42,899 nt of DNA from Candidatus Nomurabacteria bacterium. GTDB lineage: Bacteria; Patescibacteriota; Minisyncoccia; Phycocordibacterales; UBA10002. Under the pieces are notes generated by a model, which saw only the letters and a program-made list of their open reading frames with translations, searched no databases and had not been told where the DNA came from. The stretch is from the NCBI GenBank assembly GCA_943349725.1, contig CALQZP010000003.1:1-42899 (forward strand), read 5' to 3'. Each line of letters opens with the position of its first letter. Position 1 is the stretch's first letter. Both the position numbers and the translations under genes were made by a program. Positions 14,038 to 37,757 of the stretch are shown here, in pieces.

Positions 14038-16959
14038 ATGTCAGACGTTGAATTTACCAAACTCTATAACAACCTCAACCCACAGCAGAAAGAGGCGGTG
14101 GATACGATTGAGGGGCCAGTGATGGTGATTGCGGGTCCGGGGACGGGGAAGACGACGGTGCTGACGCTCCGTATAGCGCAAATCTTGCGAAAGACCGACA
14201 CGCCTCCGTCGGGGATTTTGGCGATTACCTACACCGAGGCGGGAGTGAAAGCGATGCGACAGAAGCTCCGCGCCCTTATGGGTTCACGCGCGGATGAAGT
14301 AGGATTGCATACCTTTCACGGCTTTGCGGCGGGAATACTCTCGGAGCACAAAGACCACTTTCCGCATCTTGATAGAACGACACAGATGACCGACATTGAC
14401 GCGGAGAGTTTTATTCGGGAGATTCTCAAAGATGAGCGATTCGCATCACTTCGGCCGTTTGGTAATCCGGAAATGTATGTTTCCAAAATTGTGGGAGCTA
14501 TCAGCGAGGCGAAACGCGAGGCGCAAACGTCGGAGATGGTGCGACTCTACGCGCATGCGGAAATAAAAAGCATCAAGGCCGACCCCGAGTCTATTTCTTC
14601 TCGCGGACCGACCAAGGGTAAACTAAAGGCAGAGGCCGAAAAGCAGATAGAAAAATGCGGGAAGACTATTCTCTTTGCGGATGTGTACGGGGCCTACGAG
14701 GCTAAGAAGCGCGCAGAAAAGCGAATAGATTTTGACGACCTCATTATTGAACTTCTTTCCGCGCTTCAGAATGATTCGCTCCTCCTCCGTCTTTTGCAGG
14801 AAAAGTTTCTGTACATTCTTATTGACGAACATCAGGATACGAACGACTCGCAGAACTTGCTTATTCGTCTCCTTGCCGATTTCTTTGATAGCCCAAATCT
14901 CTTCGTTGTGGGTGATGAAAAGCAAGCCATCTTTCGTTTCCAAGGTGCTTCGGTGGAGAACTTTCTGCGGTTTAAAAACGCGTGGAAGGATATGAAGACC
15001 ATTCCGCTTGAGAAGAATTATCGTTCGCATCAGCACCTTCTTGATGGCGCATTTTCACTTATAGAACATAATTACGGAGAGGGCGAGCACGCGCATCTTC
15101 GGGTGAAGCTTATAGCGGAGGGCGCCCACACACCAAAGCCAGTTGAGCTCGTGCAGGGAACCGATAGCACGACATTGCGTTTTTTGGGTGAGGAAATTCG
15201 AGAGATTCTCAAAAACGAAGCGGAGAGTACTGTCGCCATTATCACCAAGACCAACCGTGATCTGGAACGAGTGATTCGTTTTTTGGAGCGAGAAGACATT
15301 CCTGTCGCATCCGAACGCAAAATAAATATCTTTAATCACCCCGCAGGCAATCTCTTTTTTACACTGGTGGAGTATCTTGCCGATAGCACGAATGCCGAGG
15401 CGCTGGCGAAGACCATTATGGGAGGACTCTGGGGGCTTCCGTTTGAAAATGCGATTGTGTGTATGCAGGCACTTCGTAGTGGCAAACACGGAGTTGCGGA
15501 AAGTATCCCCGCGCTTCGGCATATTCGCAATAAACTCTCGGGTGACGGAGTACTGGAGTTTTTACTTTTTGCCGGTACTGCTTCGGGTTTTGTAGGGCTC
15601 ATTACGAGCGACCATGGAAGTGTGGAGGTCTGGCGAGGTATTGTAGAACTTTCCGAATATCTTATTCGTGAAGGCGATATTAGCGACCCGCGGGAGCTTC
15701 TACGGCAACTCCTTGCCTACAAAGCTTCTGCGGAAGAGCGGAGCATCAAGATAAGTGTTGGTACGCCCGAACTTCGGGTTCGCGCGATGACCGCGCACGG
15801 CAGTAAGGGTCTTGAGTTTGACTATGTGTTTTTGCCGTTCGCAACCGAGAGCTCGTGGATAGGCAGGGCGCGCGGCGAATATTTTACGCTTCCCCGAAAG
15901 GAGAAAACAGATGGTGATGATGTCAAAGACGCACGTCGGCTCTTCTACGTGGCGCTTACGCGTGCGAAGAAACATGCGGTACTGCTTTCCCCCGAAAGCT
16001 CTGCCGGAGGAAAGGTACAAACCCCCCTTCGGTTTTTGGAGGAGCTTGACGGTGCATACGTAAAGAAAGTGGTGCTTCCGCAAGAAACTGAAGACATTCT
16101 AGAAACCTCGCGTAAGGCGGGGAAAGTGTCGGACTTCGCGCAGAAAATTAACGACCTCGCAAAGACGGTGCTCCTTGAGAAAGGGCTTTCCGTGACCGCG
16201 CTCAATCACTTTCTATCCTGTCCGAGTCGGTTTATCTATCAGAGTATTTTGAAACTTCCACAGGCTCCGGCTCCGCTTCCGGAAAAGGGAATTGCCGTAC
16301 ATGAAGCGTTTGCGAATATTTGGAGCGAGAAGGAGCCTCGTGCTGAAAAGGTGCTTCCGGTGTTTAAAGATTCCATTTCCGCTTACTTTGAGCGGTCACT
16401 TCTTCCTGTTTTTGAAAAGGAGGCGGTCAAGAAGGAGCTTTTTGAGGATGCTCCGGTTATTGCGAGAGAACTTCAAAACCACTTTATCGGAAATGCCCTC
16501 GTGGAGTCGTGGAGCGAGTCACAGTTTGAAGGTAGCTATGAGAGCAAACCCGTCAGCATTCCCATTCACGGCAAGCTGGACGCGGTGCAGGAAAAAGGTG
16601 ATGAGGTGTTCGTGTTTGACTACAAAACTAAGGAAGCGATGTCGGTTAAGGAAATAAAAGGGGAAACGAAATCATCAAACGGCGATTATTTTAGACAGCT
16701 CGTCTTTTACAAACTGCTTTTAGAGAATGACCCAAGGTATAAAAACAAAACCATTATCCCGTCACTGGTGTTCGCGATACCGGACCGAAAAGGGAAGTGT
16801 GATATCGTTTCGCTACCTATCACGAGCGAGGACATCTTGTCGGTCAAACAAAACATTCAAAGTCTGATTGACTCTGTCTGGTCGGGGCATATTATGACCG
16901 ACTATTGTGACGAACCTGACTGCGAGTGGTGCAAGTTGAAAAAAGTAAGTAGCTCGTAA
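14038..16959 (+). CDS. UvrD/PcrA-family helicase fused to a C-terminal PD-(D/E)XK nuclease
   Basis: AGPGTGKT, DEHQD, VGDEKQAIFRFQGA, LFYVALTRAK; C-terminal GKLD...FDYKT and Cys cluster CPSR...CDEPDCEWC. Confidence 0.92.
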   Translation: MSDVEFTKLYNNLNPQQKEAVDTIEGPVMVIAGPGTGKTTVLTLRIAQILRKTDTPPSGILAITYTEAGVKAMRQKLRALMGSRADEVGLHTFHGFAAGILSEHKDHFPHLDRTTQMTDIDAESFIREILKDERFASLRPFGNPEMYVSKIVGAISEAKREAQTSEMVRLYAHAEIKSIKADPESISSRGPTKGKLKAEAEKQIEKCGKTILFADVYGAYEAKKRAEKRIDFDDLIIELLSALQNDSLLLRLLQEKFLYILIDEHQDTNDSQNLLIRLLADFFDSPNLFVVGDEKQAIFRFQGASVENFLRFKNAWKDMKTIPLEKNYRSHQHLLDGAFSLIEHNYGEGEHAHLRVKLIAEGAHTPKPVELVQGTDSTTLRFLGEEIREILKNEAESTVAIITKTNRDLERVIRFLEREDIPVASERKINIFNHPAGNLFFTLVEYLADSTNAEALAKTIMGGLWGLPFENAIVCMQALRSGKHGVAESIPALRHIRNKLSGDGVLEFLLFAGTASGFVGLITSDHGSVEVWRGIVELSEYLIREGDISDPRELLRQLLAYKASAEERSIKISVGTPELRVRAMTAHGSKGLEFDYVFLPFATESSWIGRARGEYFTLPRKEKTDGDDVKDARRLFYVALTRAKKHAVLLSPESSAGGKVQTPLRFLEELDGAYVKKVVLPQETEDILETSRKAGKVSDFAQKINDLAKTVLLEKGLSVTALNHFLSCPSRFIYQSILKLPQAPAPLPEKGIAVHEAFANIWSEKEPRAEKVLPVFKDSISAYFERSLLPVFEKEAVKKELFEDAPVIARELQNHFIGNALVESWSESQFEGSYESKPVSIPIHGKLDAVQEKGDEVFVFDYKTKEAMSVKEIKGETKSSNGDYFRQLVFYKLLLENDPRYKNKTIIPSLVFAIPDRKGKCDIVSLPITSEDILSVKQNIQSLIDSVWSGHIMTDYCDEPDCEWCKLKKVSSS

Positions 16960-16976
16960 AAAGTAGTAAGTAGAAA

Positions 16977-17010
16977 GAAAAACCCGCCCGAGGATACGAG
17001 CGGGTTTTTC
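16977..17010. terminator. Bidirectional terminator between convergent genes
   Basis: GAAAAACCCGC...GCGGGTTTTTC. Confidence 0.75.
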
Positions 17011-17049
17011 TTTGTATAATTCTTAAATCCTAAATCCTACTTCTTAAAT

Positions 17050-35598: not shown

Positions 35599-36468
35599 CT
35601 ATTTTGGGAATGACCCAAGGATGGTGAACTCCTTAGTGCACTCTTTCATTTCGAGAAGCGCTCCGAGAGTGCGAGCTTCTTTTTCATGTCCTTCAAGCTC
35701 AATATAGAATCCATAGTTCCACCCTCCAAGGGAAACAGAGTGAATGGCGGTCATATTGATTTGGCGAGAAGCAAAAGGGACAAAGGTTTCGAGAAGCATT
35801 CCTGGTTCATTCGGGATTCGGAAAATGATAACCGTTTTATCATTCCCCGTTGGTACGCTCTCCTGCTTTGGTCCGAACACGAAAAACCGTGTCATGTTGT
35901 CTTCAAGGTCTTGCACATCATATTCAATGACCTTCAAGTTGTACTCCTTTGCGGCAAGCTTTGATGCGATTGCGCCAAGATCCATTTCAGGATGTTCCGC
36001 TACAAACTTTGCCGCGGAGGCTGTACTGGTAGTTGATTCAATTTGCGTGAACCCCCAGCGTTTAAGCGATTTACTGCATTGGCCGAGGGCTTGCGGGTGG
36101 GACAGGATTCCTTTCAGTTTAGTGCTGTGATATATCGTCTGCTTTGACAGAAGACAGTGTCGTATTGGCAGTTCCACCTCCCCAATGATGCGCAAGGGGT
36201 AGCTAGTGGATTGCTTCGCCAAATATCCAAGGACATCAACGACATCGCCATAAGTGCTGTTTTCAACAGGAATGATACCGAGACCAGACCCACGTTCCGC
36301 AGCTTGCAGTACGCTCACATTGGTAGATTCGAACAGTATCGGCGTGTCATACTCCAGTTGAAGTTTTTGTACCGCAATTTTTGCGGCTTCATGTCCGTAT
36401 GATCCCTTTGGTCCGAGACAGATCATTGCTGTCTCGATGTCTTCGTGATTGTGTTCTGGATTTAGCAT
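35599..36468 (-). CDS. pheA: Prephenate dehydratase (PDT plus ACT, no chorismate mutase domain)
   Basis: LGPKGSY, PVENST, SHPQALGQC, NMTRF, C-terminal ACT domain ending ILGSFP. Confidence 0.93.
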   Translation of the reverse strand: MLNPEHNHEDIETAMICLGPKGSYGHEAAKIAVQKLQLEYDTPILFESTNVSVLQAAERGSGLGIIPVENSTYGDVVDVLGYLAKQSTSYPLRIIGEVELPIRHCLLSKQTIYHSTKLKGILSHPQALGQCSKSLKRWGFTQIESTTSTASAAKFVAEHPEMDLGAIASKLAAKEYNLKVIEYDVQDLEDNMTRFFVFGPKQESVPTGNDKTVIIFRIPNEPGMLLETFVPFASRQINMTAIHSVSLGGWNYGFYIELEGHEKEARTLGALLEMKECTKEFTILGSFPK

Positions 36469-36528
36469 TTTGCTTCCCCTTCTCTGTTATTTAGTTGTCA
36501 ACGAACATATTTTCTTATCTGCACAAGC

Positions 36529-36561
36529 AAACAAGCCAGTCGCTGAAGATCTGGCTTGTTT
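36529..36561 (-). terminator. Attenuator terminator 2 (pheA-proximal)
   Basis: 11-bp stem AAACAAGCCAG/CTGGCTTGTTT. Confidence 0.7.
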
Positions 36562-36617
36562 CCACATTATTCTTGAATCTTAAATCTAAATTCTTGAATC
36601 TATTTTATGGACACAGG

Positions 36618-36683
36618 TCAGACCTCCACCGATAAAGGCTTAGTAGTAAGAAAGAAGAATAATGCAGCTGTTTGTCTTGTCAT
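36618..36683 (-). CDS. Phe-rich leader peptide 2, MTRQTAALFFFLTTKPLSVEV
   Basis: Manual translation; TTC TTC TTT codons upstream of an antiterminator/terminator pair. Confidence 0.7.
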   Translation of the reverse strand: MTRQTAALFFFLTTKPLSVEV

Positions 36684-36693
36684 GTGTTTTGAA

Positions 36694-36730
36694 ATTAAAA
36701 AGACGGCTCCCCAAGCGGGGAGCCGTCTTT
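36694..36730 (-). terminator. Attenuator terminator 1
   Basis: 14-bp stem AAAGACGGCTCCCC/GGGGAGCCGTCTTT followed by a T-rich tail on the minus strand. Confidence 0.8.
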
Positions 36731-36754
36731 ATATCTAGGTTTATTTTAACTAAT

Positions 36755-36832
36755 TTAGATACAGGCAAACACCCCACTCATATTCATGGTGTTGCTAAAA
36801 AAGAAAGTTTCTGTGTTTGTGGCCGATTTCAT
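36755..36832 (-). CDS. Phe-rich leader peptide 1, MKSATNTETFFFSNTMNMSGVFACI
   Basis: Manual translation; TTC TTT TTT codons; starts 9 nt after the -10 box. Confidence 0.7.
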   Translation of the reverse strand: MKSATNTETFFFSNTMNMSGVFACI

Positions 36833-36841
36833 TACTTTTTC

Positions 36842-36870
36842 AATGTACACGATGTCGGCCCAAGCGTCAA
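36842..36870 (-). promoter_or_regulatory. Sigma70 promoter of the pheA leader
   Basis: Minus strand TTGACG, 17 nt, TACATT. Confidence 0.7.
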
Positions 36871-36926
36871 CTTTTTTGTCCACGTATATATTTTTCTATT
36901 GTTGCACAATATGATATTATTTCAGT

Positions 36927-37757
36927 GTGGCACGAGCAAAGATAACCTTAAAAAGGGAGGTATTACAGAATCTGTATTGGAAACAGAACTTAACTCCGGT
37001 TGAAATTGGTAAAAGATTTCACTGTAGTTTTAAGACAGTTCGCAACCGAATCAAGGAATTCGGTATTCCGTTTAAAAATCCCGCAATAGCTCGGATGCGG
37101 TATAAAAAGGCAGATTGCACCGATGACCCAACACTTCGTGCCTATATGTTAGGATTTAGGCTGGGCGACTTAAATGTCTATAAGAGAGGGGAGAAGTCGG
37201 AGACAGTAGTGGTTCGGTGTCACACGACACACAAAGCGCAAGTATCGGTTATGAAATCCTTGTTCGGTGAGTTTGGTCGCGTTTCAATAACTCCTCGCGA
37301 AAATCATTTTACGGTGAACTGTTTTCTGAACCGGACATTTGAATTTCTTCTACCGAAGAATGAGGCAGTATGGCAATGGGTACGAGATAATGATACTGTA
37401 GCTCCGAGCTTTATTGCCGGATATGTTGATGCGGAAGCAAACTTTATCATCAACCAAGGACGTGGTAGGTTTAAGATTGATTCTTACGACCATTACATAT
37501 TAGAGTGGATATGTGTGTGGCTTGCTAAGAAAAGTATCTCATATAAGTATCGGTGTCTTCGGAGAAAGGGGCCTTCTTGGAGAAATCAGCCCCCGCTCAA
37601 CGGTGACCTTTGGCGATTAAATATCAACGAGGCCAATTCCTTAGAGAAATTTATCAAAGAAATCTTTCCTTTTTTACGACATGCTCATAGGATACGAGAT
37701 GCAAAAGAGTGCATAGATAACGTCGTCTTACGAAGAAAAAATGGCTCAATTAAATAA
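36927..37757 (+). CDS. Free-standing double-motif LAGLIDADG endonuclease with N-terminal HTH
   Basis: AYMLGFRLGDLN and SFIAGYVDAEAN motifs; HTH TPVEIGKRFHCSFKTVRNRI; overlaps the lepA start by 17 nt. Confidence 0.8.
   Translation: MARAKITLKREVLQNLYWKQNLTPVEIGKRFHCSFKTVRNRIKEFGIPFKNPAIARMRYKKADCTDDPTLRAYMLGFRLGDLNVYKRGEKSETVVVRCHTTHKAQVSVMKSLFGEFGRVSITPRENHFTVNCFLNRTFEFLLPKNEAVWQWVRDNDTVAPSFIAGYVDAEANFIINQGRGRFKIDSYDHYILEWICVWLAKKSISYKYRCLRRKGPSWRNQPPLNGDLWRLNINEANSLEKFIKEIFPFLRHAHRIRDAKECIDNVVLRRKNGSIK

Follow-up and report, generated by a model that had tools for sequence, protein, structure and literature searches.

Two candidate phenylalanine attenuators in series between one promoter and pheA in a Candidatus Nomurabacteria genome

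Two phenylalanine-coding leaders precede pheA

The pheA gene of the Candidatus Nomurabacteria bacterium of assembly GCA_943349725.1, coding for a stand-alone prephenate dehydratase (PDT), lies on the minus strand of contig CALQZP010000003.1 (the window is the whole stretch of 42,899 nucleotides analysed here) and is preceded by a pair of small open reading frames (ORFs), each with three consecutive phenylalanine (Phe) codons (FFF) and each followed by a hairpin of the intrinsic terminator type. We propose that these are probably two ribosome-mediated Phe attenuators, placed in series between one promoter and pheA; for the second of them, unit 2, the assignment as a Phe-sensing leader-peptide attenuator is made with high confidence. 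Read along the minus strand, the order of elements is a sigma-70-like promoter (P1), leader 1, terminator 1, leader 2, hairpin 2 and pheA, and the promoter, leaders, terminators and gene that an earlier note on this DNA had listed are all present where it placed them (Table 1). Both units are housed in the 458 nucleotides (nt) that separate pheA from a divergently oriented ORF; 16 nt lie between terminator 1 and the start of leader 2, and 60 nt between hairpin 2 and pheA. Because the upstream gene (36927-37757) is divergent, terminator 1 cannot serve to end another gene. The locus combines three features of the trpL/pheL class of attenuators: a run of cognate codons, intrinsic terminators and mutually exclusive antiterminators.

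Small ORFs of this kind are rare in the genome. On its two strands together (1.84 Mb of strand), it has 30 ATG-initiated ORFs of 15-45 codons with FFF, which gives an expectation of 0.0065 per 400 nt of one strand and a probability of about 2e-5 for at least two. The region 36200-37200 is spanned by Logan contigs of two runs with no differences; both runs come from one study, perhaps the source of the window DNA, and are not independent of it. At the least, the tandem layout did not arise as an error of a single assembly.

Unit 2 is homologous to leucine and isoleucine attenuators

When the other 20 genomes of the genus were searched at the DNA level, window positions 36634-36509 proved 79% identical to a stretch of genome G008 that precedes the gene for 2-isopropylmalate synthase (leuA) and whose leader ORF reads MQSSNKALLLGLLLLT... 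From DNA matches in the genus, a motif search in 401 genomes of the order and a scan of genome contigs, we collected nine units from other genomes that share the scaffold of unit 2. The family scaffold begins with a TTGACA-17-TAnnnT promoter, the -10 element of which is followed at 6-11 nt by an ATG, and continues with an ORF of 25-38 codons, a box GGUGGAG(N3)UUGCUCGUG, a variable spacer and a terminator AAGCCAGCUCUUCACC(N)GACUGGCUU followed by a U tract. Leaders rich in leucine (Leu; 4-7 in 8 codons) precede 2-isopropylmalate synthase in all four cases, and of the five leaders rich in isoleucine (Ile; 5-6 in 8 codons) three lie before the gene for citramalate synthase, with which a route to Ile begins, and two before small unassigned ORFs. 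The assemblies that gave the genome-contig matches are labelled Patescibacteria group, Parcubacteria group or Candidatus Saccharibacteria, apart from two matches with other labels (L046 and L048, below).

The Phe codons of unit 2 (UUC UUC UUU, 36659-36651) occupy the alignment columns in which the homologues have their Leu or Ile runs, and the stop codon of leader 2 (UGA, 36620-36618) falls within the box. The box is read in different frames, as ..S V E V stop in the window and as ..G G x F/L A R.. in the relatives, so that the conserved thing is the RNA. A profile built from the nine foreign members matches unit 2 with nhmmer E values of 1.1e-15 (core) and 1.2e-17 (full length), the only significant profile match in the 919,872-base window genome, and a 23-row profile matches it at E 4.7e-13; DNA and profile searches of the window genome gave no further copies of the family. 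Unit 2 shares with this candidate phyla radiation (CPR) family the box, the terminator and the aligned place of the regulatory codons, and unit 1 shares the layout; the window differs from the family in its Phe codons and in the gene that follows, and unit 2 differs in being promoterless and in a leader frame shifted across the box. The reading of the locus as a Phe attenuator, put forward in the earlier note, is strongly supported for unit 2 by the homology, the aligned Phe codons and the alternative folds described below; it does not extend with the same force to unit 1, the homology of which is not significant.

Among the other matches, a 2.8-kb contig (L046) in a bin labelled Dehalococcoidales holds a complete family unit. 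Pattern matches at L041, L048 (labelled Pelagicoccus) and L049 lie inside long open frames and were set aside as chance, and a model match at window 16958-17019 (E 0.012) is a generic terminator-like hairpin and not a member of the family.

Alternative RNA structures of unit 2

The box of unit 2, GGUGGAGGUCUGACCUGUGUCC, pairs with the 5' arm and the loop of terminator 2. The pairing of 36627-36609 with 36563-36545, which the earlier note had counted at 16 of 19 positions and offered as a plausible antiterminator, is correct by hand and is contained in the minimum-free-energy (MFE) fold. Antiterminator 2 has a free energy of -32.1 kcal/mol (z -5.42; none of 200 shuffles as good), and hairpin 2, with 11 pairs and an 11-nt loop, one of -19.4 kcal/mol (z -3.85). 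Terminator 2 is homologous to the family terminator, with a poorer U tract than that of the relatives, which end in UUGUUUCUUUUUGG. Upstream of the box, region 1 (CUGCAUUAUUCUU) is complementary at all 13 positions (G-U allowed) to AAGAAUAAUGUGG (36574-36562), where antiterminator 2 has its base, and this helix is seen in the folds of the free RNA and of the RNA with a ribosome at the stop codon, and in the centroid. When MFE folds were computed with a ribosome footprint of 30 nt masked, unit 2 gave the antiterminator with the ribosome stalled on the Phe codons, and the terminator with the ribosome at the stop codon or with the leader untranslated. In these modelled folds, the alternatives of unit 2 follow the classical four-segment logic.

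The apex of antiterminator 2 is built of AGAUUCAAGAAU repeats. Apical heptamer-like repeats of the form (A)GATT[CT]AA occupy 36567-36607, and 19 of 20 genus relatives have the motif in short tandem runs; these runs (L022-L037) are intergenic and apparently also lie in coding frames, and L023 and L029 have theirs at one corresponding position of a gene that resembles those for aminoacyl-tRNA synthetases.

The same design is seen across the units. In all 11 (the two of the window and the nine relatives), the RNA from the box to the terminator loop, that is, the RNA that exists before the terminator 3' arm is made, folds as one long imperfect hairpin that sequesters the terminator 5' arm. In the 11-row alignment, 83.6% of the cells of the 15-pair antiterminator helix are paired; with the partner shifted by 1-3 columns, the value falls to 32-60%. 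In the window, 21-23 nt separate the last Phe codon of each leader from the box, and both stop codons are in the antiterminator strand, a geometry that favours a choice of structure by the position of the ribosome.

Architecture of unit 1

The Phe codons of leader 1 are UUC UUU UUU (36805-36797) and its stop codon is UAA (36757-36755). Its start, MKS.., and its end, SGVFACI*, resemble those of the family leaders (MKSSIN.., ..GGLACVR*, ..GGDFAC..). Box 1, AGUGGGGUGUUUGCC (36778-36764), pairs with the 5' arm and the loop of terminator 1, and the 5' strand of the inner 8-bp helix of antiterminator 1, UGUAUCUA/UAGAUAUA, contains the leader-1 stop codon. AGUGGGG pairs with CCCCGCU at 7 of 7 positions in unit 1, where the family equivalent is GGUGGAG with CUUCACC, and there are double changes between unit 1 and the family at alignment pairs 127-215 and 132-210. 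Box 1 also has two possible upstream partners, one on either side of the Phe codons. Antiterminator 1 has a free energy of -19.7 kcal/mol (z -2.94; 1 of 200 shuffles as good), and terminator 1, with 14 perfect pairs (9 of them G-C), a GCUU loop and the tail UUUUUAAUUU, one of -27.9 kcal/mol (z -7.4).

In unit 1, box and terminator are complementary to each other at places where both differ from the family, and the masked-ribosome MFE folds keep its very strong terminator closed. The search for mutually exclusive structures recommended in the earlier note found antiterminator and terminator alternatives in both units (z -2.94 and -5.42), and a switch between them under a masked ribosome in unit 2 only. 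Units 1 and 2 are 42% identical, so that the pair is not a recent duplication.

One promoter for both units

P1 is the sole sigma-70-like promoter 5' of both leaders, by inspection of the sequence and by scan. The consensus scan of the region returned four sites against 3.2 expected, and the call of P1 alone is therefore not evidence; P1 also aligns with the TTGAC.. / TAnnnT promoters of all nine family members from other genomes. Its -10 element ends 9 nt before the ATG of leader 1 (6-11 nt in the relatives), which would leave leader 1 with a 5' untranslated region of only 0-5 nt. With the spacing of the family, in which the -10 element ends 6-11 nt before the leader ATG, unit 1 has a promoter and unit 2 has none: among the 10 homologous units, only unit 2 is without an aligned promoter, and terminator 1 sits in its place. 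Neither the scan nor inspection by eye gave a promoter for unit 2; beyond terminator 1, a single further promoter-like match, ATGACA-16-TATTCT (36683-36656), is left, and it falls inside leader 2, downstream of its start codon. As unit 2 has no promoter of its own, the polymerases that reach pheA should come from P1 and pass both terminators.

No Shine-Dalgarno (SD) sequence was found upstream of the leader-2 AUG. In the window genome, SD-like 4-mers precede 51 of 376 ORFs of at least 250 codons and 77 of 376 random positions, a rough count in which the first ATG of each ORF was taken as the start. This lack of enrichment suggests mostly SD-independent initiation in this genome, and because of it the missing SD sequence should be no obstacle to the translation of leader 2.

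Proposed mechanism

From these elements we infer where transcription starts, that both ORFs are translated, that both hairpins terminate and that the system responds to Phe; these steps could be connected in the following way. Transcription would begin a few bases before the leader-1 AUG. When Phe-tRNA is plentiful, the first ribosome would pass FFF and reach the UAA codon within the 5' strand of antiterminator 1; there it would block antiterminator 1, and terminator 1 would halt the polymerase near 36695. A ribosome stalled on the FFF codons of leader 1 (36805-36797) would cover both upstream partners of the box and leave the box itself free, 21 nt downstream; antiterminator 1 could then zip from its inner 8-bp helix and capture the terminator 5' arm, and the polymerase would read on. 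A second ribosome would start at the AUG at 36683, and the same decision would be repeated at unit 2. Stalling on the leader-2 FFF codons (36659-36651) would free the GGUGGAG box for antiterminator 2, and a ribosome at the UGA codon inside the box, or no translation, would lead to terminator 2; if leader 2 is untranslated, region 1 would pair with 36574-36562. The output of pheA would be the product of two read-through probabilities, and such a serial gate may keep basal expression low and make pheA respond more steeply to a lack of Phe than it would behind either of the three-codon leaders alone.

pheA, its relatives and the attenuators of the genus

The product of pheA matches the Pfam domains PDT (PF00800, 5.8e-45) and ACT (PF01842, 5.6e-07), and scores 205.4 bits against NF008865, below the cut-off of 219. 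The window genome is 0.92 Mb long and 99.6% complete by markers, and searches of it for the CM_1, CM_2, chorismate synthase and HMGL-like (LeuA/CimA) domains gave no match. With the domains of the aromatic pathway missing, pheA appears to be an orphan last-step enzyme, the substrate of which is external or which has another use. The sole aminotransferase of family PF00155 in the genome (L074), located behind a dehydrogenase-like gene, has no Phe-rich upstream ORF.

The orthologues closest to pheA, which are leaderless, occupy other gene contexts; in G004 and G019, they lie directly behind a folA-like gene and have no leader. A metagenome scan for pheA yielded only two loci, 63% and 57% identical, both of them without a Phe leader, and no aromatic upstream ORF was found at the fused 560-residue PDT genes of L004, L006, L007 and L008, or at L009 and L010. 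L005, which belongs to another family of the order, carries a stand-alone PDT gene whose product is about 33% identical to that of pheA. Before this gene (2300-2472, minus strand) lie a promoter, one FFF leader (MKSFSITKERIAILSGIQSRFFFSTLTTD) and a terminator, and the RNA has an alternative fold (z -4.76).

A census with a covariance model gave 31 matches in 14 of the 21 genomes of the genus. The leaders read, those of 17 new matches (16 with an ORF), are Leu- or Ile-rich, except for two that are mixed (..VMYFWHLI..); among them we found no Phe run, and no pair of units with the same signal. The two mixed leaders (L065 in G007 and L067 in G018), which read ..GVMYFWHLI.. (Met, Tyr, Phe, Trp, His, Leu, Ile) upstream of a gene of about 366 codons, are possibly multi-amino-acid sensors.

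Pairs of units with different signals do occur. Each of G005, G009, G014 and G003 (L060, L069, L061/L072 and L064) has a Leu-type unit and, 400-700 nt further on, one of the Ile type. The space between the two holds an ORF of 61-87 codons and shows no detectable similarity to LeuA or CimA; the second unit of G009 keeps its own promoter. Such sequences look like the result of a loss of leuA from between the attenuators. To judge from its sequence, the window pair, with one signal, a promoterless second unit and a distance of 16 nt, is unlike these Leu/Ile pairs.

In many cases, an Ile-type unit of the relatives stands before an ORF of about 190 residues in which the C-terminal third of citramalate synthase (residues ~320-535) alone is matched. 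Those at L060, L070, L071 and L064 (G005, G010, G013 and G003) are free-standing regulatory-domain genes. In G009 and G014 (L050, 2245-2559 on the plus strand, and L072), Ile-type units are followed by ORFs of about 104-110 residues (MITANVSDWSVVFYCNG.. and MLQVHVSYWAVVIYGDP..), for which no Pfam or NCBIfam match was found.

Weighing serial attenuation against other explanations

Several results weigh against two Phe attenuators in series. The earlier note had staked its reading on the conservation of the Phe codons in relatives, and this expectation failed among the four closest pheA orthologues (54-63% identity), none of which has a leader; an upstream ORF with FFF was found at 1 of the 11 PDT loci of relatives examined. 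Each leader has only three Phe codons. Covariation in the antiterminator helix is thin, with double-sided changes at 3 of 15 pairs, all from the two window units, because the other family members are nearly invariant there. In 5 of 9 relatives, the equilibrium MFE fold with a stalled ribosome retains the terminator. Terminator 2 is not listed by the terminator scan, its loop being longer than 8 nt and its tail, UUUGCUUGUG, weak.

Other results of this kind concern unit 1. Against the nine-row profile, it has an E value of 4.5 genome-wide and 5.4 bits, as many as 1 of 2000 dinucleotide shuffles of the region attains; it is not found with the 23-row profile; and the covariance model R1 gives 11 bits (E 0.77), ranked fifth in the window. 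As none of the three similarity tests is significant, we dropped unit 1 as a proven member of the family: unit 1 works like a family member in its design, and its membership is unproven. Moreover, terminator 1 (-27.9 kcal/mol, 4-nt loop) outweighs antiterminator 1 (-19.7 kcal/mol) and persists in every masked-ribosome MFE fold, so that read-through at unit 1, as in the 5 relatives just mentioned, would have to be explained kinetically. In the general view, classical attenuators work in this way: the antiterminator forms first and must be displaced.

These properties of unit 1 (the non-significant homology, and a terminator far stronger than the antiterminator and formed in all masked folds) are also what favours the view that only unit 2 works. 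Unit 1 would then be a dead relic or a separate small transcription unit, for example one for a leaderless 25-residue peptide or for a short RNA with a strong terminator, and the polymerases at pheA would have leaked past terminator 1 or started at a promoter not recognised here, for which the weak match ATGACA-16-TATTCT at 36683-36656 could be a candidate. However, that match would start transcripts past the Phe codons, and the number of matches in the region is that expected by chance. The 16 nt between terminator 1 and the leader-2 AUG hold no consensus promoter, when all nine homologues have one, and an unrelated small ORF with FFF is unlikely to lie beside pheA by accident, given the 30 in 1.84 Mb of strand. 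Moreover, box 1 pairs with its own terminator, and the leader-1 stop codon falls within the antiterminator. We therefore regard an inactive or separate unit 1 as unlikely, if still to be reckoned with.

Two attenuators in series could also be an accident of gene loss, a possibility raised in the earlier note, with a Phe-regulated gene between the units deleted along with the unit-2 promoter and the present layout unselected. The genus offers a model for this: G008, G013 and G412 line up a Leu unit, leuA, an Ile unit and the next gene, the units having their own promoters, and the unit pairs of G005, G009, G014 and G003 look like the product of the loss of the intervening gene. That the window units are no recent duplication (42% identity), and that the genome has lost the remaining aromatic pathway (no CM_1, CM_2 or chorismate synthase), would be in keeping with such a history. 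The pairs of the relatives, however, differ in amino acid and retain ORFs of 61-87 codons and, in G009, a second promoter. In the window, the ORF, the Phe codons and the alternative folds are preserved in each of the two leaders, which speaks for continued selection on both, and the present arrangement would force the units to act serially whatever its origin. A layout left over from gene loss and not selected is, in our estimation, improbable.

Relation to known systems

An Rfam scan of 36300-37100 gave 18 matches at E values up to 10, none of them at the gathering score and none to a T-box. The sub-threshold matches to Phe_leader, Trp_leader, L20_leader and small RNAs are driven by the terminator hairpin and were rejected. 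For Phe_leader (RF01859), the scores of 30.4 bits (on the plus strand, the wrong one), 21.9 and 19.2 compare with a gathering score of 55, so that the locus does not belong to that family. It is very improbable that neither unit works through a stalled ribosome and that ordinary terminators, or a leader that binds a protein or tRNA (such as a T-box, or the AGATTCAAGAAT repeats as the site of a regulator), act beside fortuitous FFF ORFs: the direct repeats can be read as a binding site, and attenuator-like leaders of Streptomyces ilvB and leuA behaved non-classically in mutational work cited in PMC1262725, but no T-box or other Rfam family is found among the 18 matches, the repeat motif is genus-wide simple sequence present in other contexts, and the regulatory codons track the downstream gene over Leu, Ile and Phe members of one scaffold, for which a mechanism independent of codons gives no explanation.

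For the serial Phe attenuators that we favour, the closest counterpart in function is the pheL-pheA attenuator of Escherichia coli and other gamma-proteobacteria (Rfam RF01859; PMC3082878). Both have a short ORF with Phe codons before pheA and a terminator opposed to an antiterminator, the choice being decided by the position of the ribosome. In contrast to pheL-pheA, the window locus has two serial units, three Phe codons in each and a nearly leaderless start, and its gene codes for a stand-alone PDT and not for a chorismate mutase-PDT fusion, in a genome where the rest of the pathway is missing.

In the Salmonella mgtCBR leader, two short ORFs control transcription into the coding region; they sense ATP and proline-charged tRNA and act additively, and the abstract of PMC3641672 calls this a singular example. 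The pheA locus differs in that both leaders share one signal, Phe, and each has a full intrinsic terminator. Corynebacterium glutamicum has leader peptides before ilvBNC, trpE, leuA and aroF (the last with Phe-Tyr-Phe), and one leader peptide of this species is made without a ribosome-binding site (PMC4046766 and its reference 42). Like the window leaders, these are non-proteobacterial leader peptides at amino-acid genes, one of them aromatic; they differ in lineage and sequence, in being single units and in belonging to genomes with full pathways.

Tandem riboswitches and tandem T-boxes place two termination switches in series for one signal. Synthetic tandem antisense attenuators have been built as well (bioRxiv 10.1101/003335 and 10.1101/018358). 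Such serial one-signal switches are expected, like the two units here, to multiply repression and sharpen the response; unlike the units here, their sensors are RNAs that bind a ligand, a tRNA or an antisense RNA, and not translating ribosomes.

The earlier note knew of no such control in CPR bacteria, and our literature search, which left subscription journals uncovered, agrees: judged by titles and the openings of abstracts, it found none described for CPR/Patescibacteria and no paper on a CPR Leu/Ile attenuator family. Among natural tandem leader-ORF attenuators, it found only Salmonella mgtCBR, with different signals, the other finds being synthetic. The mechanism itself is textbook; the tandem layout with one signal and the CPR setting appear to be new to the literature searched.

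As a rule, CPR/Patescibacteria are regarded as amino-acid auxotrophs, and little of their regulation is known. We tentatively suggest, as a possibility that falls short of an even chance, that one near-leaderless CPR scaffold has been re-coded for at least three amino acids (Leu, Ile and Phe), and that in this genome a series of two Phe switches acts as an ultrasensitive gate with two checkpoints on an orphan prephenate/arogenate dehydratase. If so, reduced CPR cells would couple transcription and translation tightly, measure the charging of their own Phe-tRNA and finish phenylalanine from a host- or community-derived precursor. The locus and its Leu- and Ile-coded homologues indicate, more generally, that lone biosynthetic genes of these tiny genomes are probably under specific control of the matching amino acid, which argues for a true role in amino-acid supply. 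They indicate further that one RNA scaffold can be re-targeted by swapping the regulatory codons alone, and that two same-signal switches sensed by ribosomes can be arranged serially. With a promoter, two mini-genes and two terminators in 350 nt, the locus may offer a simple system for questions of sharpening by serial attenuators and of coupling in CPR.

Coordinates and neighbouring features

Table 1. Features of the pheA locus, in window coordinates
Feature	Position	Strand	Basis
Promoter P1, TTGACG (36870-36865)-17 nt-TACATT (36847-36842)	36842..36870	-	Sequence and consensus scan
Leader ORF 1, MKSATNTETFFFSNTMNMSGVFACI*, 25 codons	36755..36832	-	ORF reading
Putative antiterminator 1, long imperfect hairpin	36713..36779	-	Folding
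Terminator 1, AAAGACGGCUCCCC-GCUU-GGGGAGCCGUCUUU then UUAAUUU	36690..36730 (hairpin 36730-36699)	-	Terminator scan and folding
Leader ORF 2, MTRQTAALFFFLTTKPLSVEV*, 21 codons	36618..36683	-	ORF reading
Region 1 of unit 2, CUGCAUUAUUCUU, includes two Phe codons	36655..36667	-	Folding and hand count
Putative antiterminator 2, long hairpin with box GGUGGAGGUCUGACCUGUGUCC	36540..36632	-	Folding and homology
Terminator 2, AAACAAGCCAG-(11-nt loop)-CUGGCUUGUUU then GCUUGUGCAG	36519..36561 (hairpin 36561-36529)	-	Folding and alignment
Conserved TTGACAACTAAATAACAGA motif between terminator 2 and pheA start	36483..36501	-	Sequence reading
pheA, stand-alone prephenate dehydratase, monocistronic	35599..36468	-	Pfam PDT and ACT
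Terminator 3' of pheA	35572-35543	-	Terminator scan

For the conserved motif at 36483-36501, no -10 element was seen at promoter spacing. TTGAC(A/G) with an A-rich stretch like it also precedes leuA in G008, G017 and G013 (L019, L021 and L028).

The divergent ORF on the other side of the pheA promoter (36927-37757, plus strand, 276 codons) overlaps the start of lepA by 17 nt. It has matches to LAGLIDADG_3 (E 0.0021) and to an N-terminal helix-turn-helix domain, both below the Pfam cut-offs, and is possibly a homing-endonuclease-like insertion.

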